Shown here piece after piece: positions 1-26,962 of a stretch of DNA of 27,023 nt; position 1 is the first letter of the stretch, and every line of letters begins with the position of its first letter. The position numbers were made by a program, and so were the translations under genes. The notes beneath the pieces were generated by a model that ran no database searches, was not told the origin of the DNA, and saw nothing but the letters and a program-made list of their open reading frames with translations. Origin of the DNA: Candidatus Hodarchaeota archaeon (lineage in GTDB: Archaea > Asgardarchaeota > Lokiarchaeia > Sigyniarchaeales > SOKP01); NCBI GenBank assembly GCA_048887225.1, contig JBHLJY010000028.1, positions 1 through 27,023 of the forward strand. Direction: 5' to 3'.

Positions 1-558
1 ATTTTTATTGGAATCATATATATCTCTAAAATCAATGAGAAAAAAGGTGTAAAAACAGCAATGATGCATTCCATTTTCTGGCAAGGCGTTGGTTTTCTTA
101 TAGTGGGATCAATGCCAGGTATTTGGTGTGTGATTGGATTTTTCTTTTTTGGTATTAGTGTTTTCGGAACTTTAACGTTATTTAACGCTGCATTTGGAGA
201 AGTATGTGATGAGGATGAATTAAAAACTGGTACGCGCCGAGAAGCCGCAATTTTTGGAACAAATGCCTTGATAACGAAACCAGCGGAGTCTTTAGCTGCT
301 ATATTTATCGCTTTAATGCTATTACTATTTCTCTATCAAGAACCTATAGGTGGAGTACAGCAAACTCAGTCTGATTTTACAGTATTAGGTATTAGGATCG
401 CCATGGGAATAGTACCTGCTATTGTCGCATTTTTAGCAATGCTAATTTTCAGTTTCTCACCTCTTCATGGAAATTATCTTAAAGAAATTAAAGAAACCCT
501 CAATACTAAGCACGAAGAGAAAAAACAGAAATTAAAGGCAAAAATTTTAAAGAAATAA
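1..558 (+). CDS. MFS transporter, GPH (MelB-like) family, 5'-partial
   Basis: Frame is open from base 1. Multiple TM helices, plus GPH-type motifs 'GEVCDEDELKTGTRREAAIFG' and 'QSDFTVLGIRIAMGIVP'. Confidence 0.85.
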   Translation: MFIGIIYISKINEKKGVKTAMMHSIFWQGVGFLIVGSMPGIWCVIGFFFFGISVFGTLTLFNAAFGEVCDEDELKTGTRREAAIFGTNALITKPAESLAAIFIALMLLLFLYQEPIGGVQQTQSDFTVLGIRIAMGIVPAIVAFLAMLIFSFSPLHGNYLKEIKETLNTKHEEKKQKLKAKILKK

Positions 559-609
559 TATAACTTTTTTTTATTCTTTTTCTTGATTTTACTTATTAAT
601 AAAAAGCCA

Positions 610-13310: not shown

Positions 13311-13530
13311 ATTATCCTCTAGGAAACAATATAACTATTTAAATTATTTTTGGAGACCAATTTTTAATTTTTATAAACAAAAAGAAAGAAAAATATTTAA
13401 ATAATTTAGGAGCCTTAATTCATTTTTTAAAATAGAATTTTGTTTATTACCCGCAGATGAGTAGATTTGATTATTGATTTTCTGGGGATCATAAACTATA
13501 ATTTTTGAGGATTCGAATTAATTAAGTGAA

Positions 13531-13558
13531 AACATATATCTTATTCTAGATTTTTATA
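13531..13558 (+). repeat. Possible degenerate copy of the 28-bp site
   Basis: AACATATATCT-TATTCT-AGATTTTTATA. Left arm is 10/11 identical to the left arm at 16808. Right arm keeps only AGAT. Confidence 0.25.
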
Positions 13559-13690
13559 TATTAAGAAGAAAGAATTGAAGAACTTCTTTCCAATACTGAT
13601 AAAATTATAAATATCTATTACCCAAATTTTTATTTATATTGAAACTTTTTTTCTTTTAGAAATAAAATATTTTTAAAAAAGGAATTCTCT

Positions 13691-14407
13691 ATGAATGAAA
13701 ATCTAAGGTTAGCAATAAAAAACTTTGCAGAAGGAAAATTTATATTAGTTTATGATATCGATGGTAGAGAAGAGGAAGTAGATTTAGTTTGTTTAGCCGA
13801 AAAAGTAACACCAAAACATATCTATCATTTACGTCATGATGCTGGAGGGTTAATTTGCATTGCTATGCATGCTAATATTGCGGAAAAATTAGGATTGCCT
13901 TTCATGTCAGAAATTTATTCAAATATTTTAGAGCAATTTTCAATTTTTAACCAAATAGCCCCCGATCTTGTCGCTCCATATGGAGATAAACCATCGTTTT
14001 CTGTAACTATTAATCATGTTGATACTTACACGGGTATCACGGATATTGAGCGTGCTTTAACAATTAGAGAATTTGGTTTACTTGGTACACAAGTTTTCCG
14101 AAATGGAGGAAGCATTGACAATTATCAGAATATTTTTGGTTCAAAATTTAGAGCTCCTGGTCATATACATTTATTAATCGCTGATAAAGATTTAGTAAAG
14201 GGAAGAGTAGGGCATACAGAATTAACTGTCACATTGGCATATATGGGAGGACTCTCTCCCGTCTCAGTTTTATGTGAAATGTTAGATGGGATGACTGGAA
14301 AGGCCCTTTCAATTTCTAAAGCAAAAGAATATGCAAAAAATTATAATTTAGTAATGATTGAAGGAAATGAAATCATAAAGGCCTATAGTAAATTTCTCGA
14401 AAGGTGA
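13691..14407 (+). CDS. ribB: 3,4-dihydroxy-2-butanone-4-phosphate synthase
   Basis: 'YDIDGREEEVD', 'DAGGLIC', 'SFSVTINH..TYTGITDIERALTI', 'FRAPGH', 'GHTE', 'CEML'. Confidence 0.95.
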   Translation: MNENLRLAIKNFAEGKFILVYDIDGREEEVDLVCLAEKVTPKHIYHLRHDAGGLICIAMHANIAEKLGLPFMSEIYSNILEQFSIFNQIAPDLVAPYGDKPSFSVTINHVDTYTGITDIERALTIREFGLLGTQVFRNGGSIDNYQNIFGSKFRAPGHIHLLIADKDLVKGRVGHTELTVTLAYMGGLSPVSVLCEMLDGMTGKALSISKAKEYAKNYNLVMIEGNEIIKAYSKFLER

Positions 14408-14411
14408 AAAA

Positions 14412-14885
14412 TTGAGCAAAATAAATGTTGGTATTGCAGATACTACATTTGCACGAGTTGATATGGGTGCAATGGTAATCGATGAAATTGAAAGCATAAC
14501 GAGTAAAATGAGATTAATTCGATATACTGTTCCAGGTATGAAAGATCTACCAGTTGCATGCAAGATTCTCTTTGATCAACATAATTGCGAAATGTGTATA
14601 GCACTTGGAATGCCAGGACCCGCTGAAAAAGATAAAGTATGTGCTCATGAAGCAAGTCAAGGTATAATAATGTGTCAATTAATGACTGGAAAACACATTA
14701 TTGAATGTTTTGTTCATGAAGACGAGGCGGAAACGCCAGAAGAATTAATTAAAGTATGTGATAATAGAGCGCGAGAACACGCTCAAAATGTTTTAAAATT
14801 ATTATTTGATAAAGAATGGCTCGAAAAAAATGCTGGAAAAGGATTAAGACAAGGATATCCAGATGCCGGGCCAATTAAACCATAA
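14412..14885 (+). CDS. ribC: Archaeal-type riboflavin synthase
   Basis: 'GIADTTFARVDMG', 'RYTVPGMKDLPVACK', 'FVHEDEA', 'AGKGLRQG'. Confidence 0.95.
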   Translation: MSKINVGIADTTFARVDMGAMVIDEIESITSKMRLIRYTVPGMKDLPVACKILFDQHNCEMCIALGMPGPAEKDKVCAHEASQGIIMCQLMTGKHIIECFVHEDEAETPEELIKVCDNRAREHAQNVLKLLFDKEWLEKNAGKGLRQGYPDAGPIKP

Positions 14886-14899
14886 AAAGGAAAAAAAAA

Positions 14900-15334
14900 A
14901 TGAGTGAAAATAAAATTAATATTGGTATAGTTGTTGGAGAATTTCATTATGACATTACTAAAAATATGCTCAACAAGGCTATTGAGCATGCTGAATTTCT
15001 AGGATGTAATGTATTAGAAGTTTTTAAAGTTCCAGGGAGTTTTGATATGCCTTTAGCAATAAAAACACTTCTTACCAAAGATAATATTGAAGGTATAGTA
15101 TGTTTAGGTGCTGTAATTAAGGGTGATACCGATCATGATCAAGTAGTTGCCCAACATGCAGCAAGAAAAATGGTAGATTTATCTTTAGAGTATGGTAAAC
15201 CTGTTGCTTTAGGTGTTTCAGGTCCAGGAATGACAAGAGTTGAAGCAGTAGAACGGATCGAAGATTTTGCTCGTCGTTCAGTAGAATGTGTCGTAAAAAT
15301 GGTAAAAAGGATAAAAATATCTAAGAATAAATGA
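14900..15334 (+). CDS. ribH: 6,7-dimethyl-8-ribityllumazine synthase
   Basis: 'IGIVVGEFHYDIT', 'VPGSFDMP', 'LGAVIKGDTDHD', 'KPVALGVSGPGM'. Confidence 0.95.
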   Translation: MSENKINIGIVVGEFHYDITKNMLNKAIEHAEFLGCNVLEVFKVPGSFDMPLAIKTLLTKDNIEGIVCLGAVIKGDTDHDQVVAQHAARKMVDLSLEYGKPVALGVSGPGMTRVEAVERIEDFARRSVECVVKMVKRIKISKNK

Positions 15335-15344
15335 GGTTATATTT

Positions 15345-16100
15345 TTGATTCAAATAACCTATATTCAAATTGATGATTTTGGACCCTTTACAGAGAGAAT
15401 GGGTAATAATCGAGAACATAAAATTCAAATACTACTATCTGAAATATTCATTTTCTTACAGAAGCATTTTAATCAGCACGAAGGTCTTGTATTTTCTGCT
15501 TCAAAAGATAATATGATTGCTGTCTCAAATGGAATTTCTATTGAAAAACACAGAGAAATAATTGATGAACTAGAAAAGAATTTCCCCATTACAATTAGTA
15601 TGGGAATTGGAGTAGGAAATACTCCGTTAGAAGCTCAAATTGATGCGTCGAAAGCTTTAAATTTACATGGAAGCGCTCAATCTTCAAGAAGGAAAGTGCT
15701 CGCATATAATGGACATGTATTGCCAGTTAAAAATCGAGTTAAAGTAGCTCATATTGATATAAATTTCTATACTAAGATAAATACAGATGTATCCCCCTTT
15801 TACTCTAATTTTATTAATTTGAATAAAAGCTATATAACATTAATGGAGAACTTTGAAAAAATAGGGGCATTATGTTTTTTCAATGGAGGAGATAATTTTA
15901 TTTGCATTTGCTCAAATTCAATGCTAACTCGAGAAATAGTAAATATAATAATGGAATTTGAATCTAAACACGATCCATGGAAATTAAAAGCCGGGATTGG
16001 TGAAGGACAAAATGTACTTGAAGCAATCGCTAAAGCAAATATTTGCTTGAAAAGAATAAGAGAAGGAAATAATAAAGAAAAAGTAATTGCTATTAATTAG
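15345..16100 (+). CDS. gch3: GTP cyclohydrolase IIa/III (ArfA)
   Basis: 'IQIDDFGPFT', 'DNMIAVSNG', 'AHIDIN', 'FFNGGDNF', 'LKAGIG'. Located in the riboflavin operon. Confidence 0.9.
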   Translation: MIQITYIQIDDFGPFTERMGNNREHKIQILLSEIFIFLQKHFNQHEGLVFSASKDNMIAVSNGISIEKHREIIDELEKNFPITISMGIGVGNTPLEAQIDASKALNLHGSAQSSRRKVLAYNGHVLPVKNRVKVAHIDINFYTKINTDVSPFYSNFINLNKSYITLMENFEKIGALCFFNGGDNFICICSNSMLTREIVNIIMEFESKHDPWKLKAGIGEGQNVLEAIAKANICLKRIREGNNKEKVIAIN

Positions 16101-16115
16101 ATAAATATTCTTTTT

Positions 16116-16796
16116 TTGATTTTCTTGAATAATTTTATTTTTATACCTATTGGTAGTTATGAACAACATGGACCTCATCTTCCACCTGATACAGATTATT
16201 TAATAGCGAAAAGTATTACTCAAAATATCTCTCCATTTTTTAAAGGTATGATTATTGAGAGAATAAAAATAGGGATATCACCCGAACACGAAGAATTTAA
16301 GAATACAAAATCAATTTCTCAAAAGGAATTTATTTCTCAAATTGAAGGAATAATTGAAAATTATCCAAATAATTATAAATTCATTATAATAAATGCTCAT
16401 GGTGGCAATATAGATACATTAAAATCAATTCAAAAATTAAACAAGAAAAAAATTTTAGTCTTAAATATATTTTCGTTAATTAAAAAAGATCTAGAAAAAA
16501 TAAGAACTTCTGATATCGGTGGGATTTGTCATGCGGGCGAATTTGAAACATCTATTATGTTATATCTTTATCCAGAAAAAGTTATCTTGAGTAGTTTAAA
16601 GAAAAGCGATATAAAATATATACCTGCATTAGATCCAAATTATAAAAAAAAAAAGCTAAGAAATTGGGAAACAATTAATTTAAGTAAATCGGGAATTTTA
16701 GGAGATCCTTATCACGCAACTCCTAAAAAAGGAGAAATATGGTTTAACACCTTAATCGAAAAAATTAAATATTGTATTGTAAAATTTCTCAATTAA
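16116..16796 (+). CDS. arfB: Creatininase-family amidohydrolase, likely FAPy deformylase ArfB
   Basis: 'PIGSYEQHGPHLPPDTD', 'GISPEH', 'INAHGGN', 'HAGEFETS', 'GILGDP'. Directly follows gch3. Confidence 0.8.
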   Translation: MIFLNNFIFIPIGSYEQHGPHLPPDTDYLIAKSITQNISPFFKGMIIERIKIGISPEHEEFKNTKSISQKEFISQIEGIIENYPNNYKFIIINAHGGNIDTLKSIQKLNKKKILVLNIFSLIKKDLEKIRTSDIGGICHAGEFETSIMLYLYPEKVILSSLKKSDIKYIPALDPNYKKKKLRNWETINLSKSGILGDPYHATPKKGEIWFNTLIEKIKYCIVKFLN

Positions 16797-16807
16797 TTTG
16801 TAAAATA

Positions 16808-16835
16808 ATCATATATCTGTTCTAAGATATAGGAT
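16808..16835 (+). repeat. 28-bp site 1 (spacer GTTCTA)
   Basis: ATCATATATCT-GTTCTA-AGATATAGGAT. Arms are 10/11 complementary. Lies between convergent genes. Confidence 0.8.
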
Positions 16836-16898
16836 GAAATGAATAAAAAAAATAGAAAAAAAAAATTAAATAGTTGTTATTTTCTTACTAAAATTTAA

Positions 16899-17222
16899 CT
16901 ATCCTGGCGGTACTTTTCCTAATGTAGCATATGCTTCTGCCAGAGTTGACCACACTTCAATTGAAGCTTCGAAGCCTTCAACAGGTGCATACATGACCAC
17001 TGCATTATTGGTACGTGTTAGTGCTTCCTCAAGTTTGCCCTCTTTTACCTCCGTAATACCTATGGTTTTTATACCATCTGTAGTAGCCTTTACGGCATTT
17101 GGCACAATATTCTCTCCAAGAGAATCATCTGGAGGATATTTTTTTGCTACTTCAATAGCTATTTTTATAATCTCAGGTATTTTGGCACTAGGCCAACATG
17201 TCCTTACAACAATATATGGCAT
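16899..17222 (-). CDS. Hypothetical protein (~107 aa)
   Basis: ATG 17222 preceded by AAGGAGAAGTGA. Globular alpha/beta composition. Confidence 0.75.
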   Translation of the reverse strand: MPYIVVRTCWPSAKIPEIIKIAIEVAKKYPPDDSLGENIVPNAVKATTDGIKTIGITEVKEGKLEEALTRTNNAVVMYAPVEGFEASIEVWSTLAEAYATLGKVPPG

Positions 17223-17381
17223 ATATTTCACTTCTCCTTATAAATTTTTATTTTTGATTGAATTTCATTTTTTTTATTAGATATTTCACCCATAAAATTA
17301 TGGATTAGGTAATAATTTGACAAATAAGTATTTAAATGTTTTACATTTTTGTAATGGGCGATTTAGAAAGAAACTCAAGAA

Positions 17382-17446
17382 ATTATCTATATAGTTCAAG
17401 AGATAAGATTCTCTAAGTTTACCTATTCAAAAAAGCCAAATTTCAA
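17382..17446 (+). repeat. 28-bp site 2 (17382-17409, spacer AGTTCA) plus conserved right flank
   Basis: ATTATCTATAT-AGTTCA-AGAGATAAGAT, then TCTCTAAGTTTACCTATTCAAAAAAGCCAAATTTCAA, which is shared with sites 4 and 7. Confidence 0.85.
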
Positions 17447-17521
17447 ATCATTTCAAATTTACCAAAGATTTTTAATACTTTATAATAATAAATTTTAGTA
17501 TAATTATTTCAGCTAATAGAA

Positions 17522-18088
17522 ATGAGCGAAGCTAAATATAAACATAGATATTATTATAAAGAGTCTTATGAAGCCGCTATTGGGACATTTGCTGTTGCCA
17601 TAGTTTTTATTTTTGTTGCAGTTTTATCATTATTTTTTAGAGCTTTTGAAATTGATTTTATAGGACTTGCTGGGTGGGGATTTTGGCTTTTCATTCCTGC
17701 ATTTTTTATTTTCATTGGTGGCTTTGAACAGCTTCATAGGAATTATAAATATAAGAAGATAGTAAAGAACGCAGTAGCCACAAGAAACTTTCAAGGTACC
17801 TATAAACTTGAACATATTGCATTGGAAATTGGTATGAAACCCTCAGTATTACTTCGAGTGTTATTGGATCTAAGAAATAAAGGAGTAATTAAGTATAGAT
17901 TTGATGCTGAGACAGGACAAATAATCTTAGGTCAGCCGATAACATATACCCCCGCAACTGAGTACATCTCACCACCTAAAAAATTGGATGCTCCCTTACC
18001 AACAGAGGGAAAAAATTACTGTGTCTATTGTGGTCATAAATTAGAAACAACTGCAAACTTCTGTCCTAATTGTGGATCTAATCTTTAG
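17522..18088 (+). CDS. Membrane protein with two TMs, a winged-helix-like region and a C-terminal zinc ribbon
   Basis: Two hydrophobic helices, 'LEHIALEIGMKPSVLLRVLLDLRNKGVI' and 'CVYCG...CPNCG'. Confidence 0.75.
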   Translation: MSEAKYKHRYYYKESYEAAIGTFAVAIVFIFVAVLSLFFRAFEIDFIGLAGWGFWLFIPAFFIFIGGFEQLHRNYKYKKIVKNAVATRNFQGTYKLEHIALEIGMKPSVLLRVLLDLRNKGVIKYRFDAETGQIILGQPITYTPATEYISPPKKLDAPLPTEGKNYCVYCGHKLETTANFCPNCGSNL

Positions 18089-18128
18089 AATTTTTTAAAT
18101 TTTTTTTTTTGATAATTTTTGGTTGAAT

Positions 18129-18830
18129 TTATTTTGATTTAAATTCTTTATGTAATTTTTTTCTTCTAAGTTCTTTAATGAATCGTGGTACATCGCCATA
18201 ACCTTCGGAGTAGCCCTTCCAGATTAAAACCAGATAAATTATAATAAAAGGAATCCATAATGGCCAGAAATTGATATTCAACCAAGTTGTAATTACAAGG
18301 TGGAGTAAATATTGGAACAGATTTACTGGTGTCCCTATTAAATGGGTAATTGCGCGTTTATTAAAACTCGATTGAAGATACGAAGAATATTCAATGTCCC
18401 ATGTTAGCTGAAGTCTGTAAATTCCCCATCCATTAAATTTAATTTTGCAGATATGTGCGACAATAATATGAGATAATTCATGTGGACCTTCCATTATGAG
18501 AAAGATAAATGCCATCCATAATATAATTCCAATCCAATAAGCAGAATCAGTTGTATTTAATTGTGTAGTTCTACTAAAAATAAAGAAATTGAACCACCAA
18601 ATCCATGCGATGATACCTGTGAAAAAAGTTATTAATCCTAGTAAGATACCGCTTTTAACAGAATATAATTCCCAAGGAACATTTTTTGCTTTTATTACTC
18701 CAAATTTATCTGCGATTTCTTTAGGTACATGCTCGTAATTTATCTTAACATAGTTAACTAATTTCCAAAATTCTTTTTTTTCAGCCGTAGTTAATCTTTT
18801 TTTTTTTAAGAAATTGTCTAATAACTCCAT
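18129..18830 (-). CDS. Putative membrane zinc metalloprotease (M50/site-2-like)
   Basis: HEXXH ('HELSH') after a TM helix, 'IGTPVNL' and a distal Asp in 'GYGD'. Confidence 0.55.
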   Translation of the reverse strand: MELLDNFLKKKRLTTAEKKEFWKLVNYVKINYEHVPKEIADKFGVIKAKNVPWELYSVKSGILLGLITFFTGIIAWIWWFNFFIFSRTTQLNTTDSAYWIGIILWMAFIFLIMEGPHELSHIIVAHICKIKFNGWGIYRLQLTWDIEYSSYLQSSFNKRAITHLIGTPVNLFQYLLHLVITTWLNINFWPLWIPFIIIYLVLIWKGYSEGYGDVPRFIKELRRKKLHKEFKSK

Positions 18831-18874
18831 ATTTATTTTAAAGAATGATTTAAATCTATTTTTTAAATTTTATT

Positions 18875-19357
18875 TTACAATATTTTTTCTAGTTCTATCT
18901 CATCTCTAATTGGGATTCCATCCATCCCTATTAATGGAATCTCTGGCTTTAATCGACGTAAATCCTCCGCAGCGTTACGATAAAGTGCTGACAAACTATA
19001 ACCCTTTTTCTGATAAAAACGAATAGCATTTAAGTTGTCGTTGGTGGTTACTAACCAAATGCGCTTACAACCTATAGATGAGGTATATTCCTCAATTTTA
19101 GCTATTAATTTGGATCCAATTCCAATATTCTCCTTAAGAATATTTAATGTGATTATTTCACAATCTTGATCATCAATTTTGAATGTTAAGAGCCCAACTC
19201 GTTTTCTTTCTTGGACGGTTACAAACCCCGTTAGTTGATCAACATAATGAACTTTTCCACGGGATACTACCCTAATTGAAGACCATTCTTTCTCTATCAC
19301 CTGACGTAACCAATTTAAATCATCTTTACGCAAAGAACGAATTAAAATAGAACTCAA
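18875..19357 (-). CDS. GNAT family N-acetyltransferase
   Basis: 'GIGSKLI', 'IWLVTTNDNLNAIRFYQKKGY', 'KPEIPLIG..GIPIRDEIELEK'. Confidence 0.92.
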   Translation of the reverse strand: MSSILIRSLRKDDLNWLRQVIEKEWSSIRVVSRGKVHYVDQLTGFVTVQERKRVGLLTFKIDDQDCEIITLNILKENIGIGSKLIAKIEEYTSSIGCKRIWLVTTNDNLNAIRFYQKKGYSLSALYRNAAEDLRRLKPEIPLIGMDGIPIRDEIELEKIL

Positions 19358-19419
19358 TTTTCCTAAACCTTTATATTTTCGCCAATTTATCTAATTGACT
19401 ATTTTATTTATAATTTAAT

Positions 19420-19561
19420 ATTTTTGATTAACTTTATATTTTCCATTTTACGTCAATGTATTCTAATGTAATTTGATAAGATTTTATATTTCTTGCTTAA
19501 ATTTTACTTCAATCTCTAAAATGGGGTAATTAATTGAATTAAAATTAAATTTGGAAAATTT
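19420..19561 (+). repeat. 142-bp direct repeat, copy 1
   Basis: Ungapped match to 22333-22474. The core 19439-19484 vs 22352-22397 differs at 1 of 46 positions. Confidence 0.9.
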
Positions 19562-19694
19562 GAAAGTGCTATTATTACTTAGTTTCATTTAAATATGACG
19601 ATATCTTTTTTTAAAAATTGATATAAGGATATGTCGCTACTAAAATAAAATTTAACAAAAAAAGTGAATAAAAAAATGTTTTAAAGGTGAACCT

Positions 19695-22265
19695 ATGAAA
19701 AAAAAAAAAATTTCTTACATAATAATCTGTAGTATTACTATTTTTTCTATATTACCAACTTTCTTTTTTTTTATGGATACTCCATCTAAAATGCATATTA
19801 ATTCTAATATTGAAACAAAAATGAATAATTTTTCTGTTTATCTTCCAAAAACATCAGGTGTTTCTCAGTTTAATGATATTGGAGATTATCTATATCTTGG
19901 AAATGATTATCTTAATATGAGCTTTAAAAAAAGTTTTAATTGTGGTATTGATTCATTCATAGAAAAATTTACTGGCAATGATTATTGTAATTCAAGTGGA
20001 GCGCTGCGAACCCTTTTTGCTTTCACATTCTACAATTCTACGTATGAAGGAATTTTTGCTCAATGGAATGCAATCAATTTAGATTACGGAATAAAACCAA
20101 TTAATAATGGACTGTGTCTTGAATTAAATTATTCACGCTTTTCAGATATTAATACTGAGGAGTATGATATTGATGTCTTTATTATTATAGAAATATATGA
20201 CACGGAAAAACTTACAAATTGGTCCATCAATATTTCAAATAATGCGCCAATTACAATAAAAGAGATCCTGTTTCCAGTTATTTTAGGAGTAAGTGGGCAA
20301 GTTGATTCTAAGTACGGTGATGAATACTTGTTATATCCAGTATTAGATGGAGTTATTTTACATTGTCCAAATAAAACTATTGATCAATATAATTCATTTT
20401 CAGGAATTTATCCATCAGATCTCTCTATGCAATTTATGGCATATGGAGATGAATTAAATGGTTTATATATCGCCACATACGACAACGAAGGATTTATTAA
20501 AAAATTTTGTTTTGATAGAGATCCTATCAACACGAACTGCTTAAGACTATACATATCATATTTAATTCCTGAATTAGAAGGAAACGATTTTAATCCATCG
20601 TTTAATGTGAAATTTGGAATTTACGAGGGTGATTGGAGAGCTGCTGCGGATATTTATAAAAATTGGGCAATAATGCAACCATGGACATCAAAGGGAACTG
20701 TAGACCAAAGAAATGATTTACCATCTTGGTGGAAAAAGACCGCGATTATAGTAATTGAAAACTATAAAGATGATGATCTTTCTAAACCTGAAATCCCTCT
20801 TTCTGAATTTAATACAATCACAAAATCAATTTCAGATATGACAGGATTAAATATAACAACATTATTCATGGGATGGGAGCAAAATGGATCTTGGATTGGA
20901 CCCAACCAATTTCCTCCACGTGAGGGAAATATTCCTTTTATCTCTGCTATAGAATCACTAAAAAATGATGGAAATCATGGATTTATAATGCTTTCAGGTA
21001 CGGTCTGGAGAGTTGAGAGACCTGACCTTAACCCACCTTATAATGGTACGGATTATTTCTTAAATAATGGGATTGATTGGGTTGCGATTAATGCTACTCA
21101 TGAACCATATTATGATGAATTTTATACTAGTTATGGTTGGAAGGCTGCTCGAATGTGTGTTGCTACGGATAAATGGAGAGAATATGTAATAAATAACTCG
21201 ATAAAGGCAGTAGAATTAGGATTAGATGTTTTATCTATTGATGAATTTCCAGTAGGAAGTATATATCCTTGTTATAATGATACCCATGGTCATCCTCTTG
21301 GTTATGGCAAATATCAATCAGATCAATACAAAAAAATGTTGGAGGACATTCGTTCAGAATGTAGGAATCGCAATCCTAATTTTATAATGAGCACGGAAAC
21401 ACCAAATGAGATGTATATCCCTTATATTGATACTTATTTATCAAGAGATAATTCTCCAGAGTGGCTAGTTTATCGTGGGTTTGCGAATGCCCTTGGAAAT
21501 TCAATAGAATTTGCACCTCTTTTTACATATATTTATCATGAATATTTAACAACTTTTGGTGAATGGCTCCCAATACATAACTATAGTTCTAGTCTACTTA
21601 ATGATATTATTTATAATCAACATGCTCGTAGTTTGGGAGAAAGTTTCGTCAGAGGAAAAATTCAGAATGCAAGATACGGTAATTCAACAAATATCGTTCC
21701 TGAACTTATTGAGTTATATAATCGAACAGCTCAAGCCATAGGAACATATGGTAATAAATATCTCATCGAAGGAAAAATGCTTACAGCCCCAAAAATTACA
21801 GTTCCAGAAATAAATATAACTTGGCTCTATTCATATCCACCATTAATTTGGGGACCAAATTTAACATCTCCAGCCATTCTACATAATGCTTGGCAATCTC
21901 CTGATGATTGTATAGGATATACGTTTGTTAATTTAAAGGATGAGATAATAAATTTCAATATCAATATTTCTGCATATGAATTGTCTCATTCAAGATATAA
22001 TTTAAGAAAAACTAAAAATGGAATTCAAGAAATTCTTTATGCAAATACAGAATTACCAATAACAATTAATTTATCTTTAGGATTTAATGATGTTGTAATT
22101 ATTGAGGTTATCCCTTATAATATACCTATTATTTTTGGTGGTTCAAATGATTCAAAAAATAAAAACAAGGAAGAAAATATAATTAGTATTGGGATAGCGC
22201 CACTCTTATTGATTGCTTTAATCACTATTTTATTGAAAATGAAGAGAACTAAGAAAAAGATTTAA
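19695..22265 (+). CDS. Membrane-anchored putative glycoside hydrolase (DUF6259-like TIM barrel)
   Basis: N- and C-terminal hydrophobic anchors. Motifs 'YPSDLSMQFMAY', 'GDWRAAADIYKNWA', 'RMCVATDKW', 'LSIDE..PCY...HGHP.G.G', 'STETPNEMYIPY', 'PLFTYIYHEY'. SD AAGGTGA upstream. Confidence 0.7.
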   Translation: MKKKKISYIIICSITIFSILPTFFFFMDTPSKMHINSNIETKMNNFSVYLPKTSGVSQFNDIGDYLYLGNDYLNMSFKKSFNCGIDSFIEKFTGNDYCNSSGALRTLFAFTFYNSTYEGIFAQWNAINLDYGIKPINNGLCLELNYSRFSDINTEEYDIDVFIIIEIYDTEKLTNWSINISNNAPITIKEILFPVILGVSGQVDSKYGDEYLLYPVLDGVILHCPNKTIDQYNSFSGIYPSDLSMQFMAYGDELNGLYIATYDNEGFIKKFCFDRDPINTNCLRLYISYLIPELEGNDFNPSFNVKFGIYEGDWRAAADIYKNWAIMQPWTSKGTVDQRNDLPSWWKKTAIIVIENYKDDDLSKPEIPLSEFNTITKSISDMTGLNITTLFMGWEQNGSWIGPNQFPPREGNIPFISAIESLKNDGNHGFIMLSGTVWRVERPDLNPPYNGTDYFLNNGIDWVAINATHEPYYDEFYTSYGWKAARMCVATDKWREYVINNSIKAVELGLDVLSIDEFPVGSIYPCYNDTHGHPLGYGKYQSDQYKKMLEDIRSECRNRNPNFIMSTETPNEMYIPYIDTYLSRDNSPEWLVYRGFANALGNSIEFAPLFTYIYHEYLTTFGEWLPIHNYSSSLLNDIIYNQHARSLGESFVRGKIQNARYGNSTNIVPELIELYNRTAQAIGTYGNKYLIEGKMLTAPKITVPEINITWLYSYPPLIWGPNLTSPAILHNAWQSPDDCIGYTFVNLKDEIINFNINISAYELSHSRYNLRKTKNGIQEILYANTELPITINLSLGFNDVVIIEVIPYNIPIIFGGSNDSKNKNKEENIISIGIAPLLLIALITILLKMKRTKKKI

Positions 22266-22292
22266 TTGTATATTTGTTCTAAGATATAAGAT
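22265..22292 (+). repeat. 28-bp site 3 (spacer GTTCTA)
   Basis: ATTGTATATTT-GTTCTA-AGATATAAGAT. Overlaps the last base of the upstream stop codon. Confidence 0.8.
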
Positions 22293-22332
22293 TCCCCATG
22301 TCTAAATATTATTTACTTTTTAGTATGAATAA

Positions 22333-22474
22333 ATTTTTGGTTAATTTTTTGTTTTCCATTTTGCGTCAATGTATTCTAATGTAATTTGATAAGATTTAAC
22401 TTTTCTTGCTTATATAATACTCCAATTTTTAAAATAAGTTAAAAAATTTAATTAAAATTAAATTTGAAAAATTT
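22333..22474 (+). repeat. 142-bp direct repeat, copy 2
   Basis: Ungapped match to 19420-19561. Confidence 0.9.
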
Positions 22475-22644
22475 CATACTTCAATAATTGTATAGGTATA
22501 TTTATATATGATCATATCGGATCATTCGTTATCATGACATTTCTATATCATCATACACCAACATCCCCGAATTAAACACTTTAGTTTATTTATTTTTAAG
22601 CTTGTTTCAAACCGAAACAGGCGAAATAAAATTTACTGAAAAAA

Positions 22645-24876
22645 GTGATAAAAGAAATGTTAAACAAATCAAAAATTATATTAAAAAGCAGAAAGAAAAC
22701 AATTATTTCGATTGCGACGGTACTTTTCATAGGGATAATGTTATCAAGTATTTTTCTTGCAACTGCTAATACACAAATAGCTGATGTAGGAAAGAAATCT
22801 AGTGAAATTAATGAAGAAATAGGAGCTACAGGGAATGATAATTCTTTGGTTACAGATGAATTCCAAGAGGATATTAATACTTTTTCGGATGATATAATCA
22901 GTAGTTCTCAATATGGTGTTTCCGAAATGAAAATTCGAGAAGATAACAAAGTTGAATTTGTTGTAAAAAGAGATAGTTTGGAATTCTCTCCAGAAGCGAA
23001 TCAACTTATTAGTGAGTATGATGTTGAAATTCATAAAGAACACCCTTCAATTAACTCCAGTATAGTCTATATCTCACTAGATTCAATTGAAAATTTTATA
23101 CTCGATGCAAAATCCACTCCTGGAATCGCCTACGCTGAACCTAACTTTTATGATAAGATTGATTTTATCCCCAATGATCCATTTTATGGTTATGAGGATT
23201 ATCAATGGGATTTACCATTAATAGGCATGGAAATAGCATGGGATTATCAATTAGGTTCTCATAATGTACTTGTTGCGGTTATTGATACTGGTATTGATTA
23301 TAACCATCCTGATCTTATAGGAAATTATGTTCCCTTAGGACATGATTGGGTTAATAATGATAATGATCCAATGGATGATGCTTTCGATGGGCACGGAACT
23401 CATGTGGCAGGCACGATTGCGGCGAGTATTAATAATGGAATAGGTATTGCTGGTATGGCTGATGTTTCTATATTTGCTGAAAAATCAGCAGATGCAGAAG
23501 GCGATACCACACATCTAAACTTCAGAGCTGCAGTAATGCATGCAGTAGATAGTGGAGCTGATATTATTAGTTATAGTAGTAGCGGTGCTCACTCCACAAC
23601 AAAACGAGAAGCTATTGATTATGCAATAAATCACGGTGTTATGGTAGTAGCCTCAGCAGGAAATGAAGCAACTGGTAGTCCTCTATATCCTGCAGCTTAT
23701 CCTGAAGTAATAGCTGTTGCATCAACCGACCAAAACGACCAAAGAGCATCTGATTCTAATTATGGCAATTGGATTGATTTCTCGGCACCTGGAGTTGATA
23801 TCGTTTCTACATTTCCAGAAAATCAGTATGCTCTTGGGAGTGGTACATCCATGGCTTGTCCTCATGTGTCGGGTCTCGCAGCTCTACTTATGAGCGAATT
23901 TACAACCTATACTCCAAGTCAAATTGAAGATTTAATAAGGAATAATGTTGTTGATCTTGGCACTCCTGGATTTGATATTTTTTATGGATGGGGTAGAATT
24001 GATGCAAGTAATATATTTTTTATAGATCCTCAAAATCCCATTTTGATTGATGATACTTCTTCGAATAACTGGCAATGGGCCAAAGAAGAATATAGTTTAC
24101 CTGGATTTGGCACTATATCCAACCCATATATAATTGAGTCTAAAACCATTAACGGTGAAGGGATTTCGGTAGCTTGTATAGAAATTAGAAATTCCAACCA
24201 GTATTTTATAATAAGAAATTCGTTTCTTTCCGATTCATTTTACGGACTCAAATTATATAAAACTGATAACGGAAAAATAGAGGGTAACTGGATTATGTCA
24301 TGTGACTATGGAATATTTACAATTTATAGTGATAATAACATTATTTCAGAAAATTGGATTTACTTTAATGATCATGATGGGATGTTTATATCAGGTAGTG
24401 ATCATAACATAATTTCTGATAATACAGTGCATTCTAATGGAGATGGGGGAATATATTTGGGTCAATCACACTCTAATCAGATTATCGACAATAATGAAAT
24501 TTATAATAATAAGAAAGAGGGGATTAGGACAATAAACAGCAATAATAATCATATTATGGAAAACACTATTTATGACAATAATATCGGGATTTCTATTGAA
24601 GGTTCAGATTCAACGTTGTCTTGTATTTATTTGAATAATGTAAATGACAATACAATCGGGATATATTTATACCAAAGTAATAATTTTTGGATTTTGGCTA
24701 ACGAATTAAATAGTAACTGGTGGATTGGAATTGCTATATTAGAATGTAATTCTATTTATGCTGTTTATAACACCATTAGCGATAGTGGATGCGGAATAGC
24801 TTTACTGGGTTGTGTTAGCTGCGCACAATCGGGGAATACCTTCATTAATTGTAATAATGATGTCATTGAGGCATAA
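22645..24876 (+). CDS. Secreted S8 subtilisin-like serine protease with C-terminal parallel beta-helix (NosD-like) repeats
   Basis: Catalytic triad 'VIDTG', 'HGTHVAG', 'GTSMACPH'. Oxyanion motif 'SAGN'. Repeated 'GIxxxxSxxNxIxxNxI'. The start may be ATG 22657. Confidence 0.93.
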   Translation: MIKEMLNKSKIILKSRKKTIISIATVLFIGIMLSSIFLATANTQIADVGKKSSEINEEIGATGNDNSLVTDEFQEDINTFSDDIISSSQYGVSEMKIREDNKVEFVVKRDSLEFSPEANQLISEYDVEIHKEHPSINSSIVYISLDSIENFILDAKSTPGIAYAEPNFYDKIDFIPNDPFYGYEDYQWDLPLIGMEIAWDYQLGSHNVLVAVIDTGIDYNHPDLIGNYVPLGHDWVNNDNDPMDDAFDGHGTHVAGTIAASINNGIGIAGMADVSIFAEKSADAEGDTTHLNFRAAVMHAVDSGADIISYSSSGAHSTTKREAIDYAINHGVMVVASAGNEATGSPLYPAAYPEVIAVASTDQNDQRASDSNYGNWIDFSAPGVDIVSTFPENQYALGSGTSMACPHVSGLAALLMSEFTTYTPSQIEDLIRNNVVDLGTPGFDIFYGWGRIDASNIFFIDPQNPILIDDTSSNNWQWAKEEYSLPGFGTISNPYIIESKTINGEGISVACIEIRNSNQYFIIRNSFLSDSFYGLKLYKTDNGKIEGNWIMSCDYGIFTIYSDNNIISENWIYFNDHDGMFISGSDHNIISDNTVHSNGDGGIYLGQSHSNQIIDNNEIYNNKKEGIRTINSNNNHIMENTIYDNNIGISIEGSDSTLSCIYLNNVNDNTIGIYLYQSNNFWILANELNSNWWIGIAILECNSIYAVYNTISDSGCGIALLGCVSCAQSGNTFINCNNDVIEA

Positions 24877-25047
24877 TAATTACTATAATCCGTGAAATAC
24901 AATCATATTCGGAGTTTCTGCTGTACTGATCATCGAAGACTAATCTAAATCGCCACGAAGAAGAGAAAAACGTAAAGCAAATCGAAATGTTAACTCAAAG
25001 TCTAAATCCTTTTTTTTTATTTTTTTAATCATTAAATCTTAGATTGA

Positions 25048-25147
25048 ATTATATATTTAGTTCAAGAGATAAGAATCTCTAAGGTTACCTATTTAAAAAT
25101 GCCAAATTTCAATTAATAATTTTTAAATAGTGAACGTACATAAATGT
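25048..25147 (+). repeat. 28-bp site 4 (25048-25075, spacer AGTTCA) plus long conserved right flank
   Basis: ATTATATATTT-AGTTCA-AGAGATAAGAA. 25059-25147 matches 26874-26962 at about 78/89 positions by manual count. Confidence 0.88.
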
Positions 25148-25183
25148 AAAATATATAATTAAAAAAAGAGAGGTTAAAAACCA

Positions 25184-25459
25184 ATGGAAAAAGAAATAAG
25201 AGAAGAAAAAAATAAAACTGAAACAAATAAAGAATTCATCCAAGACCAAATAGAGAGCTTCTTAGAATTATTCAAATATGCTAAGGGTAACATAGGTATT
25301 TATAAAGATCAGATAAAAGAATTCCTAAGATTAATAGTTGCCCAGGGGCATCTAAATAAATTAGATGAAAATTATAAAAGAAAATTTGCAGAAATCAATA
25401 ACCGTTATAAAGAAGAATTCAAACCCGCAAAACCTAAAGTAGTATATGATGATTTTTAA
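25184..25459 (+). CDS. Hypothetical protein (91 aa)
   Basis: SD GAGAGGT upstream, helical charged composition, poly-T tract after the stop. Confidence 0.7.
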   Translation: MEKEIREEKNKTETNKEFIQDQIESFLELFKYAKGNIGIYKDQIKEFLRLIVAQGHLNKLDENYKRKFAEINNRYKEEFKPAKPKVVYDDF

Positions 25460-25495
25460 TTTTTTTTTCTTTTTTTTTATCTTATCCTGGATTGG

Positions 25496-25523
25496 ATTAA
25501 ATATCTGTTCTAAGATATAAGAT
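25496..25523 (+). repeat. 28-bp site 5 (spacer GTTCTA), nested in a 10-bp perfect inverted repeat
   Basis: ATTAAATATCT-GTTCTA-AGATATAAGAT, flanked by TCCTGGATTG (25485-25494) and CAATCCAGGA (25532-25541). Confidence 0.85.
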
Positions 25524-25551
25524 CTCCCTGTCAATCCAGGAATTTATTTCG

Positions 25552-25704
25552 TTATTCATTTTCGCCCATTTCCTCATCTTCATCATTTTTTTTATTCCAG
25601 TCATTGTCCTCTTCTTTTGTTTTGGCTTCCTCACGATTTCTACTCCTCTCATTCCATTCATCAGTTTTAATTTGTTTTTTCCATTTTTTAAAGTATTTTG
25701 GCAA
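25552..25704 (-). CDS. 50-aa basic/acidic microprotein
   Basis: SD AAGGTGA then TTG. MPKYFKKWKKQIKTDEWNERSRNREEAKTKEEDNDWNKKNDEDEEMGENE*. Confidence 0.65.
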   Translation of the reverse strand: MPKYFKKWKKQIKTDEWNERSRNREEAKTKEEDNDWNKKNDEDEEMGENE

Positions 25705-25848
25705 AGGTTTCACCTTCTTTTTAACTAAATTTGGATTTTAAAGCAATATATAATTTGATTGTTCTATATTTAAATTTTTACATTATTATCAAAATGTCTT
25801 AAAATAATAGCCTTTTTCTTAGATTTAAAGAGTTCTAACAATTCAATA

Positions 25849-25876
25849 ATAATATATTTAGTTCAAGATATAAGAT
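25849..25876 (+). repeat. 28-bp site 6 (spacer AGTTCA)
   Basis: ATAATATATTT-AGTTCA-AGATATAAGAT. Right flank TGAAATGAAAAAAAA resembles that of site 1. Confidence 0.82.
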
Positions 25877-25948
25877 TGAAATGAAAAAAAAGAAGAATTT
25901 AAAATTTTATATATTAAATAAACATATTTCTATTCAAAAAATATTAAT

Positions 25949-26821
25949 GTGAAAAATATGGAAATTTTTGAACAAATGGAAGAAAAATACATAGAATGTT
26001 ATGGCGGTGTAAAGTTACACACGATGATGATTGGGGAGGGAGAACCATTAATCTTGCTACATGGATTTCCTGATTTCTGGTATGGATGGAAGAATGTAAT
26101 TTTGGGTCTGAAAGACGAATTTAAGTTAATTGTACCTGATACACGAGGTATAAATTTGTCATCGAAACCTGAGGGGATTGAAAACTATTCATTAGACTAT
26201 TTAGTTGAGGATATTAAAATTTTAAGTGAAAAATTAAATCTTAGCTTGTTTACTCTTGTTGGACACGATTGGGGTGGAGCTATTGCTTGGGCTTTTGCTT
26301 ATAAATATCCTGAACTACTAAAAAAGCTTGTAATAATTGATTCTGCACATCCAAAAATCTTTAGGAAATATATTAAAGAAAACCCAAAACAAAGAAGATC
26401 GAGTGGTTATATGCGTGTATTATTAAAACCTGGTGGAGAACAAAGTCTGTTTAAAAACGACATGATGGGACCGAAAGCAGCTGTTTTTGGAACTGCACGA
26501 AAAAAAGGTGCTTTTACCGAAGAAGACAAGCAATTATATATTGAATCTTGGTCTCAACCGAACTCACTCTTATGCGCTGTAAACTATTACAGGGCAAATA
26601 GAAATATTACTCAATCAGTTGGATTTATCGAAGTTCCCACATTAGTCATCCATGGGATGAAAGATAATTTCGTAAGACCACTCGTCCTTGAAGGATTATC
26701 AGAACTTGTAAAAGATTTAAAAATAGTGAAAGTGGAACACTCAAGTCACTGGGTAATGCATGATGCTCCAGAATTAGTTTACTCGAATATAAAAGAATTT
26801 GTTAAAAGTAATCCTTATTAG
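25949..26821 (+). CDS. Alpha/beta-fold hydrolase, epoxide hydrolase-like
   Basis: 'LLHGFP', nucleophile 'GHDWGG', 'NYYRA', 'HGMKD', 'SHWV'. The start may be ATG 25958. Confidence 0.92.
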   Translation: MKNMEIFEQMEEKYIECYGGVKLHTMMIGEGEPLILLHGFPDFWYGWKNVILGLKDEFKLIVPDTRGINLSSKPEGIENYSLDYLVEDIKILSEKLNLSLFTLVGHDWGGAIAWAFAYKYPELLKKLVIIDSAHPKIFRKYIKENPKQRRSSGYMRVLLKPGGEQSLFKNDMMGPKAAVFGTARKKGAFTEEDKQLYIESWSQPNSLLCAVNYYRANRNITQSVGFIEVPTLVIHGMKDNFVRPLVLEGLSELVKDLKIVKVEHSSHWVMHDAPELVYSNIKEFVKSNPY

Positions 26822-26862
26822 AACTCTCAAAAGTTATAAGTAAATAGATTCGGCTCGATATT

Positions 26863-26962
26863 TATAATTATTTAATTCAAGATATAAGATTTTCTACGTT
26901 TACCTAGTCAAAAAAGCCAAATTTCAATTAATAATTTTTAAATAGGGAAAGTACATAAATGT
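26863..26962 (+). repeat. 28-bp site 7 (26863-26890, spacer AATTCA) plus long conserved right flank
   Basis: TATAATTATTT-AATTCA-AGATATAAGAT, followed by the flank shared with sites 2 and 4. Confidence 0.85.

Follow-up and report, generated by a model that had tools for sequence, protein, structure and literature searches.

The stretch of DNA analysed here (the window, 27,023 nt) is the whole of contig C28 (JBHLJY010000028.1) of a Candidatus Hodarchaeota archaeon genome, G000, which comprises 3.27 Mb in 49 contigs, is 98% complete and has ~30% G+C. The right-hand part of the window is divided into gene modules by copies of a 28-bp element, hereafter the core (Table 1). The original prediction, made from the window alone, was that seven such elements are recombinase sites that delimit cassettes of accessory genes. 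A weight matrix was trained on 56 genome copies of the core and used to scan the window. Exactly seven matches of at least 12 bits (22.6-37.2 bits) were obtained, all on the + strand and at the seven proposed positions, 16808, 17382, 22265, 25048, 25496, 25849 and 26863, confirming both the sites and their common orientation. No copy was found by weight-matrix or consensus scan in the first 16.8 kb of the window, which extends the earlier remark that no clear copy was noticed in the first 13 kb. The module contents of 16808-26962 were also as first described, with a DUF6259 domain and a NosD domain added to the description, and with short putative open reading frames (ORFs) of 53-54 aa in module 5. 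Module 2 encodes a Zn-ribbon membrane protein (+), a HEXXH membrane protein (-), a GNAT (-) and a DUF6259 protein (+), and the terminator of module 3 ends in cttagattga, the L2 type of flank described below. The product of the 107-aa gene in cassette 1 belongs to a small-protein family found in Asgard (Promethearchaeota) metagenome data and has no Pfam match. A search of the window against Rfam families gave no match.

The core is an imperfect inverted repeat with 11-bp arms and a 6-bp spacer. The information common to all copies is restricted to these 28 bp. It peaks at the GTTC in the centre and in AGATATAAGAT, the right arm, which hardly varies between copies, in contrast to the variable left arm. 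Two types of core were distinguished. Type A reads ...TATTT AGTTCA AGATATAAGAT, with the spacer AGTTCA, and type B reads ...TATCT GTTCTA AGATATAAGAT, with the spacer GTTCTA, and is a near-perfect palindrome in which 9-10 of the 11 arm positions are complementary. The single 28-bp consensus of the original prediction fits six of the seven positions with at most three mismatches, where shuffled sequences are expected to give 0.16, but it does not capture the two spacer types or the fact that the site is often longer than 28 bp. Examples of such longer sites are the outer arms at 25048, the inverted repeat around 25496 and the ~30 extra conserved bases on the promoter side of 17382. When folded as single-stranded DNA, six of the seven sites gave 0 to -4.7 kcal/mol with no common structure. 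The site at 25496 alone has an extra hairpin, formed by a 10-bp inverted repeat that encloses the core (25485-25494 / 25532-25541; -11 kcal/mol, z -3.1). Since the single-strand folds are weak, the core is more likely recognised as duplex DNA by a protein.

To describe the distribution of the core, the whole genome was scanned with the weight matrix. At a threshold of at least 14 bits there were 60 matches compared to one in a shuffled control, and the ~60 copies are spread over 11 contigs. Some 55 of 57 copies are intergenic. They are grouped in about ten places, on C2, C4 (three clusters), C6, C7 (two), C10, C28 and at several contig ends, with 79-8935 bp between cores and whole genes inside. 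Neighbouring cores point the same way in 35 of 40 pairs (p = 1.4e-6), and the orientation of a core goes with its array and not with the direction of the genes. The clustering into about ten arrays is in line with the original prediction, as is the finding that intergenic, co-oriented sites delimit the modules whichever way the genes face. The sites are confirmed as marking cassette boundaries.

Table 1. Features of the window (contig C28), with the array on contig C2 given last.
Feature	Position	Strand	Description
Riboflavin-synthesis and creatininase-like block	13446..16800	+	conserved; left border of the array
Core site 1	16808..16835	+	type B, near-perfect palindrome, between convergent gene ends; 32.5 bits
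Cassette 1	16836..17381	-	R2 terminator module (~16836-16867) and 107-aa gene (16899-17222)
L1 module	17225..17381	-	conserved promoter (TTTAAATA box) and 5' leader with CCATAAATTTATGG
Core site 2	17382..17409	+	type A, between divergent genes; 32.9 bits
Module 2	17410..22264	.	R1 leader (17410-17447) and four genes; no core between the genes
Core site 3	22265..22292	+	type B; first base is the last base of the DUF6259 stop codon; 31.5 bits
Module 3	22293..25047	+	~200-bp conserved leader (R4 type), S8 protease with NosD/beta-helix domain, T-rich terminator
Core site 4	25048..25075	+	type A; outer inverted arms CTTAGA / TCTAAG on the flanks; 33.9 bits
Module 4	25076..25495	+	R1 leader (25076-25113) and 91-aa ORF
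Core site 5	25496..25523	+	type B; 30.8 bits
Module 5	25524..25848	.	short putative ORFs only (53-54 aa)
Core site 6	25849..25876	+	type A, matches the consensus exactly; 37.2 bits
Module 6	25877..26862	+	orphan R2-like fragment (25877-25906) and alpha/beta-hydrolase gene (25958-26821)
Core site 7	26863..26890	+	type A; left arm degenerate, right half intact; weakest, 22.6 bits
C2 array (contig C2)	90.8-112.4 kb		15 matches of at least 16 bits, more at looser thresholds

The sequences next to the cores fall into a few classes. On the left, the L1 module extends over ~135-160 nt, is 80-90% identical among 18 unrelated cassettes and always has the core at its end. Its order on the minus strand is ~30 conserved bases, then a TTTAAATA box and a leader in which the palindrome CCATAAATTTATGG lies, followed by an A-rich tract, the ribosome-binding site and the start codon. 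The R1 module, on the right of the core, is a mirror-image relative of L1, and the L2 and R2 modules are T-rich terminator tracts (A-rich on the other strand). All four combinations of left and right flank classes are present. Each flank is a promoter-leader or a terminator module of a standard kind, and the modules combine freely. Within the core, the left flank covaries with the left arm and the spacer, and the right flank with the final base of the right arm.

Within the L1 leader, CCATAAATTTATGG forms a perfect 14-bp palindrome located between the predicted start site and the ribosome-binding site (window 17225-17300, minus strand); an operator or an RNA hairpin shared by the 18 cassette genes is a possible function. 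A conserved leader of ~190-280 bp that contains actttttagcattaaaaatgtaaa precedes the S8 protease and DUF6259 genes (window 22293-22520 and 19420-19605) and is repeated on C1, C2, C4, C7, C10 and C20, possibly as a common promoter or 5' untranslated region of secreted-protein genes. The R3 element (tctatttcttatgatccctctcataagaac..., 100-158 bp, 94% identity) occurs at C4:110948-111048, C4:113249-113406 and C7:119910-120065, after the first and last cores of the 110.9-113.2-kb array of C4 and after the last core of the C7 array, and may be an array-end element.

The core could also be the site of a dimeric DNA-binding protein with a regulatory or architectural role. It would then act as an activator or repressor site upstream of the standard promoter module, as a transcription insulator, or, as XerD unloading sites do in Bacillus, as an Xer-bound site that does not recombine. 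The dyad form of a site recognised as duplex DNA and a position 35-50 bp upstream of a TATA-like box in the L1 and R1 modules are consistent with this, and bacteria have multiple dif-like sites that are bound but not recombined (cited in PMC11840125). To examine the relation of the core to genes, the flanking genes of 51 sites were classified in the orientation of the site. The promoter lay on the left and the terminator on the right in 20 cases and the reverse held in 12, while 11 sites were convergent and 8 divergent. These frequencies are close to the genome background for intergenic regions and 11 of the 51 sites (22%), those of the convergent class, have a gene end on each side and a promoter on neither, which indicates that the site is not tied to promoters. 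A promoter or operator as the sole explanation was rejected on the same grounds. The original prediction had taken two convergent-end sites in the window as an argument against simple operators, and the genome-wide count upholds it; the pattern is clustered and not one of scattered sites at a fixed distance from TATA boxes. Moreover, the genes flanking the cores share no common function, the orientation is set by the array and not by the gene, and orthologous or paralogous genes of relatives use the same promoter modules with no core. A regulatory or architectural site therefore appears quite improbable.

Cassette cargo across the arrays is varied. The enzymes encoded include an iron-containing alcohol dehydrogenase, an amine oxidase, a class IV aminotransferase, a luciferase-like monooxygenase, a nitroreductase, an alpha/beta hydrolase and an S8 protease. 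Other cargo comprises a Na/Ca exchanger, a two-gene ABC transporter, GNATs, SCP2, NosD/beta-helix surface proteins and DUF6259 proteins, together with many small proteins that have no Pfam family, including a ~130-aa family. No transposases, recombinases or other mobility genes were found among the cassette genes of the arrays.

To see whether relatives share the arrays, we searched 30 species representatives of the same genus, family and order, in which the core occurs at background frequency. A few relatives have one or two genuine copies, which are not syntenic, and the search of species representatives returned single copies only, in two Promethearchaeota metagenome-assembled genomes (MAGs) and one MAG labelled Thorarchaeota, the rest being chance matches in bacteria. 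The two closest species have the riboflavin/creatininase block at 94-95% identity and three others at 76%. Homology to all five ends at 16782-16806, just ahead of the first core, none of them has a core there, and the 10-kb array has no counterpart in these five genomes of the same genus. After the block, the three more distant species have 1.9-4.5 kb of unrelated DNA and then the block that starts contig C23 of G000. This order suggests that the array probably runs from C28 into C23. The block lies inside a region syntenic with contig C29 of G000 in two relatives (G006 and G005) and precedes the C23-start block in G001, G003 and G004; synteny within the genus is generally poor.

Closer strains were found in metagenome data, where an exact 21-mer of the core occurs in 16 contigs. 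Several of these contigs have two to three cores around new cassettes or around cassettes that resemble those of other G000 arrays. No recombinase genes were found on the core-bearing metagenome loci. Contig L034 and the start of C23 match at 98% identity as far as the fourth base of a core, after which L034 continues with a proper core and three more cassettes. Contig L036 contains a gene 98.5% identical to one of the C6 array, with a core and another cassette directly upstream, and the equivalent position in G000 holds a promoter remnant and a luciferase-like gene. A third contig, L071 from JGI, came to light through a hydrolase of 97% identity; the contig itself matches G000 at 93-95%. Its order is a homologue of the major facilitator superfamily (MFS) gene at window 1-591, a terminator, L2, a type-B core, the alpha/beta-hydrolase cassette (95.6%) and a cassette of the C6 array (88%) that is joined with no core; another exact core lies further on. 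L071:6211-6798 corresponds to window 1-591, and the MFS gene is followed there by the type-B core and cassettes; after the same gene in G000 there are only R1-module fragments (aaaaagccaaatttt, tctaagtcc) and no core. Depth in another study's sediment sample was ~35 for the hydrolase cassette, ~5 for the adjoining riboflavin block and zero for the DUF6259 gene, so cassettes are found independently of the genes around them. The contigs show that related strains have the same site with other or reordered cassettes, and that cassettes are reshuffled between strains. Exact-protein look-ups matched the source sample only, and a 15-base pattern of the core gave chance matches only and no full core in viral contigs.

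The genome has three tyrosine recombinases. One is XerA, on C25 (C25:18133-19062; NF040815, 238.8 bits, cut-off 220). The other two are divergent and are located on C24 (C24:667-1692) and at the end of C7, where the gene is cut by the contig end and lies ~5.5 kb past the C7 array, beyond uvrC. Neither of these two has orthologues in the 30 relatives, and both are lineage-specific. An XerA or integrase gene next to the arrays was looked for and none was present. The best match to the integron integrase model TIGR02249 scored 106.6 bits against a cut-off of 265 and is XerA itself, and no IntI was found. No Y1 (REP-associated tyrosine, RAYT) transposase was detected in the 98%-complete genome (no PF01797 match), and no serine recombinases or CRISPR-like arrays were found, hence none with the core as repeat.

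Comparison with known systems places the layout closest to that of Acinetobacter dif modules. Plasmid dif (pdif) sites in that genus alternate in orientation (C/D then D/C), are plasmid-borne and are served by two recombinases. In contrast, the cores described here are direct repeats on chromosomal contigs with housekeeping genes, and to our knowledge an archaeon has at most a single Xer. Like the XerC/XerD-mobilised modules (PMC6449649, PMC7399989, PMC13141974), the present arrays have many 28-bp 11-6-11 sites bounding small accessory modules, no dedicated recombinase alongside, and a content and order that vary between relatives.

Integrons and clusters of attC sites lacking integrases (CALINs) likewise share with the present arrays the co-oriented organisation, mostly single-gene cassettes, diverse or unknown functions, a recombination-site-like repeat and, mostly, no integrase. 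An attC site measures 55-141 nt and ends in RYYYAAC/GTTRRRY, and integron cassettes are usually promoterless and face one way. The present arrays differ in having a 28-bp duplex-type site with weak folds, genes in either direction and a promoter and terminator for each cassette. Integrons and CALINs have been reported in Asgard MAGs (Ghaly et al. 2022, PMC9668308). The attC sites are folded single-strand hairpins. Identity of the core with attC was rejected: the ends are wrong, with C where R is required, the sites do not fold as a common single-strand hairpin and there is no IntI. The original prediction had already remarked on the lack of attC ends, and correctly so, as the core reads GTTCAAG or GTTCTAA and has no RYYYAAC partner.

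The dif site used in experiments on Pyrococcus abyssi is ATTGGATATAA-TCGGCC-TTATATCTAAA (PMC2958812) and that used for Thermococcus kodakarensis is TTTTGATATAA-TGTACC-TTATATGACAA, with TAA-N6-8-TTA named as the conserved feature (PMC11840125). Like these, the core has 28 bp, an 11-6-11 layout and AT-rich arms made of the same words (TTATATC / GATATAA), and the genome encodes a bona fide XerA. It differs in that archaeal dif reads GATATAA-N6-TTATATC and occurs once per chromosome, in the terminus region, whereas the words are everted here (TATATCT-N6-AGATATA) and there are ~60 copies. A canonical Thermococcales-type dif was also sought in the genome, and the pattern search, too noisy in DNA of 30% G+C, yielded no unique candidate.

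Co-oriented sites between elements are also found in arrays of integrative mobile elements exploiting Xer (IMEX; CTX-phi, TLC-phi, the gonococcal island), where successive Xer-site integrations leave co-oriented site copies; these differ in being located at a single dif site and in holding phages or islands. The sfx sites of the R64 shufflon (Rci/sfx) have one conserved and one variable arm, as the core does, but the shufflon inverts segments of a single gene. Repetitive extragenic palindromes (REP) and bacterial interspersed mosaic elements (BIME), with their RAYT transposases, and the neisserial dRS3 repeats and neisserial intergenic mosaic elements (NIME) are short, many-copy, intergenic imperfect palindromes that often follow gene ends. 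They are dispersed genome-wide and form stable hairpins, and REPs are accompanied by a Y1 transposase. An origin as REP/RAYT elements was rejected because no Y1 transposase was found, the folds are weak and the copies are clustered and co-oriented. A CRISPR-derived repeat was likewise rejected, as the spacing is 79-8935 bp compared to spacers of 25-50 bp and no CRISPR-like array was found, and the aloposons of Heimdallarchaeum are unrelated, being tRNA-integrating elements with giant genes. A full-text literature search gave no account of such arrays in Asgard archaea.

Taken at slightly less than even confidence, the reading we favour is that the 28-bp elements are core sites of a site-specific recombinase that acts in trans and is most likely of the tyrosine type. 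The asymmetry between a conserved and a variable arm is usual for the sites of such enzymes. Slightly more tentatively, the arrays may constitute an Asgard gene-cassette system distinct from both integrons and classical Xer/dif, in which XerA or a lineage-specific integrase, encoded elsewhere, reads the cores and joins ready-to-express cassettes that travel from array to array and from strain to strain. A cassette would be excised by recombination between two direct sites, as a circle with one site, and would be reinserted in the same orientation when the circle recombines with any other site. In this way cassettes could move within and between arrays and strains, each self-contained cassette bringing its own standard promoter-leader and terminator module. 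The candidate enzymes would be XerA and the divergent tyrosine recombinases of C24 and the C7 end.

The main rival explanation is that the core is a lineage-specific boundary repeat, selfish or protein-bound, and that cassettes are exchanged by homologous recombination in the promoter-leader/terminator modules of 100-200 bp. Arrays would then have grown by tandem duplication and gene replacement, keeping the core orientation. Promoter-leaders that are 80-90% identical over ~135 nt between unrelated cassettes would be ample substrate for this, and one or two copies in relatives compared to ~60 here is the pattern of a proliferating repeat. On the other hand, this explanation leaves a strongly conserved, asymmetric 11-6-11 core without a role, and a selfish repeat would be expected to be scattered in random orientation, whereas about ten co-oriented clusters were observed. 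No target-site duplications or fixed element ends were seen, and the Y1 transposases and serine recombinases that could move the core are absent (DDE families were not searched). Overall, we regard the boundary repeat as rather unlikely.

Several observations weigh against recombinase core sites, and some of them favour the boundary repeat directly. The first concern the site and its enzyme. The TAA-N6-8-TTA feature of archaeal dif is absent, the centre of the core being TCT-GTTCTA-AGA or TTT-AGTTCA-AGA, so that of the Xer/dif layout originally proposed the 11-6-11 geometry stands and this feature does not. Five of the six window modules are flanked by one type-A and one type-B core, and a classical tyrosine recombinase would recombine pairs with such mismatched spacers poorly. 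No array has an adjoining recombinase, the nearest being that at the C7 end.

Others concern genes that have the modules but not the core. In one case, a gene 93% identical to the 107-aa gene has kept both modules, promoter and terminator, but has no core on either side, and several near relatives have the same genes with the same promoter/terminator modules and no site, as the boundary-repeat explanation would have it. In the sister species G006, paralogous cassettes of the 130-aa family stand in tandem, with related promoter/terminator modules but no core. The junction sequence of G006 differs from the core and occurs only twice in its genome, which has no equivalent repeated core. Paralogous small genes thus stand in tandem in both G000 and G006, again as expected of a boundary repeat.

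The remaining observations concern the breakpoints. Every mappable breakpoint comparison has one partner without a core, and the breaks lie at the outer edge of an arm or 8-70 nt off, never in the spacer. Homology to relatives ends at the first site, where the original prediction looked for breakpoints, but the mapped breaks are beside the core and not within it, which favours the boundary repeat, as does the region between the core and the alpha/beta-hydrolase gene, which is not conserved between G000 and L071. At the singleton core C19 29014 (C19:28022-29070; L195:1022-2071), an SCP2-like gene and terminator carry the core at the 3' end. The insertion has a 283-bp duplication at its flanks, comprising the promoter and the 5' end of the next gene downstream, a gene that G006 has intact. 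This footprint is not like that of a simple site-specific event. Comparisons of empty and filled loci for this core and for C10 49604 gave no clean case, as the neighbours differ too. Finally, no circular junction, excision scar or empty site was found in the reads and contigs of four runs, of which the raw-read run did not contain the organism; contig joints with short sides (20-48 nt) were explained by repeated modules elsewhere. Cassette capture or shuffling in trans, as originally proposed, is partly supported, by related strains with other or reordered modules and not by a circular junction, an empty site or an adjacent recombinase.

Some further observations concern single genes and segments. 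The 188-aa Zn-ribbon membrane protein of module 2 (17522-18088) is not accessory in the wider sense, as it is 80-89% identical across many Asgard lineages. With its C-terminal zinc ribbon, it occurs in MAGs labelled Promethearchaeota, Thor-, Hermod-, Hod- and Odinarchaeota, an unusually high conservation for a protein of no known function, and no core was found in the contexts of two of its relatives. An 86% identical copy on an ENA contig (L209:273-839) has a recorded product that is obtained only if TGA codes for Trp; an in-frame TGA, a sequencing error and recoding are possible explanations. Separately, a 941-bp segment in a multi-gene cassette of the C2 array (C2:98220-99160) recurs with 95% identity at C3:65185-66125 and may be a young duplication or a mobile element.

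Asgard archaea are the closest prokaryotic relatives of eukaryotes, and how they gain and reshuffle genes is largely unknown. The bacterial-type integron is the only cassette system reported for them. If the cores are indeed sites of a recombinase acting in trans, these archaea would have a second, home-grown gene-capture platform, with a simple and testable pair of site and enzyme. If the core is instead a boundary repeat, the arrays would reveal a standardised promoter, terminator and boundary architecture of accessory genes, which would be relevant to gene expression in Asgard archaea.

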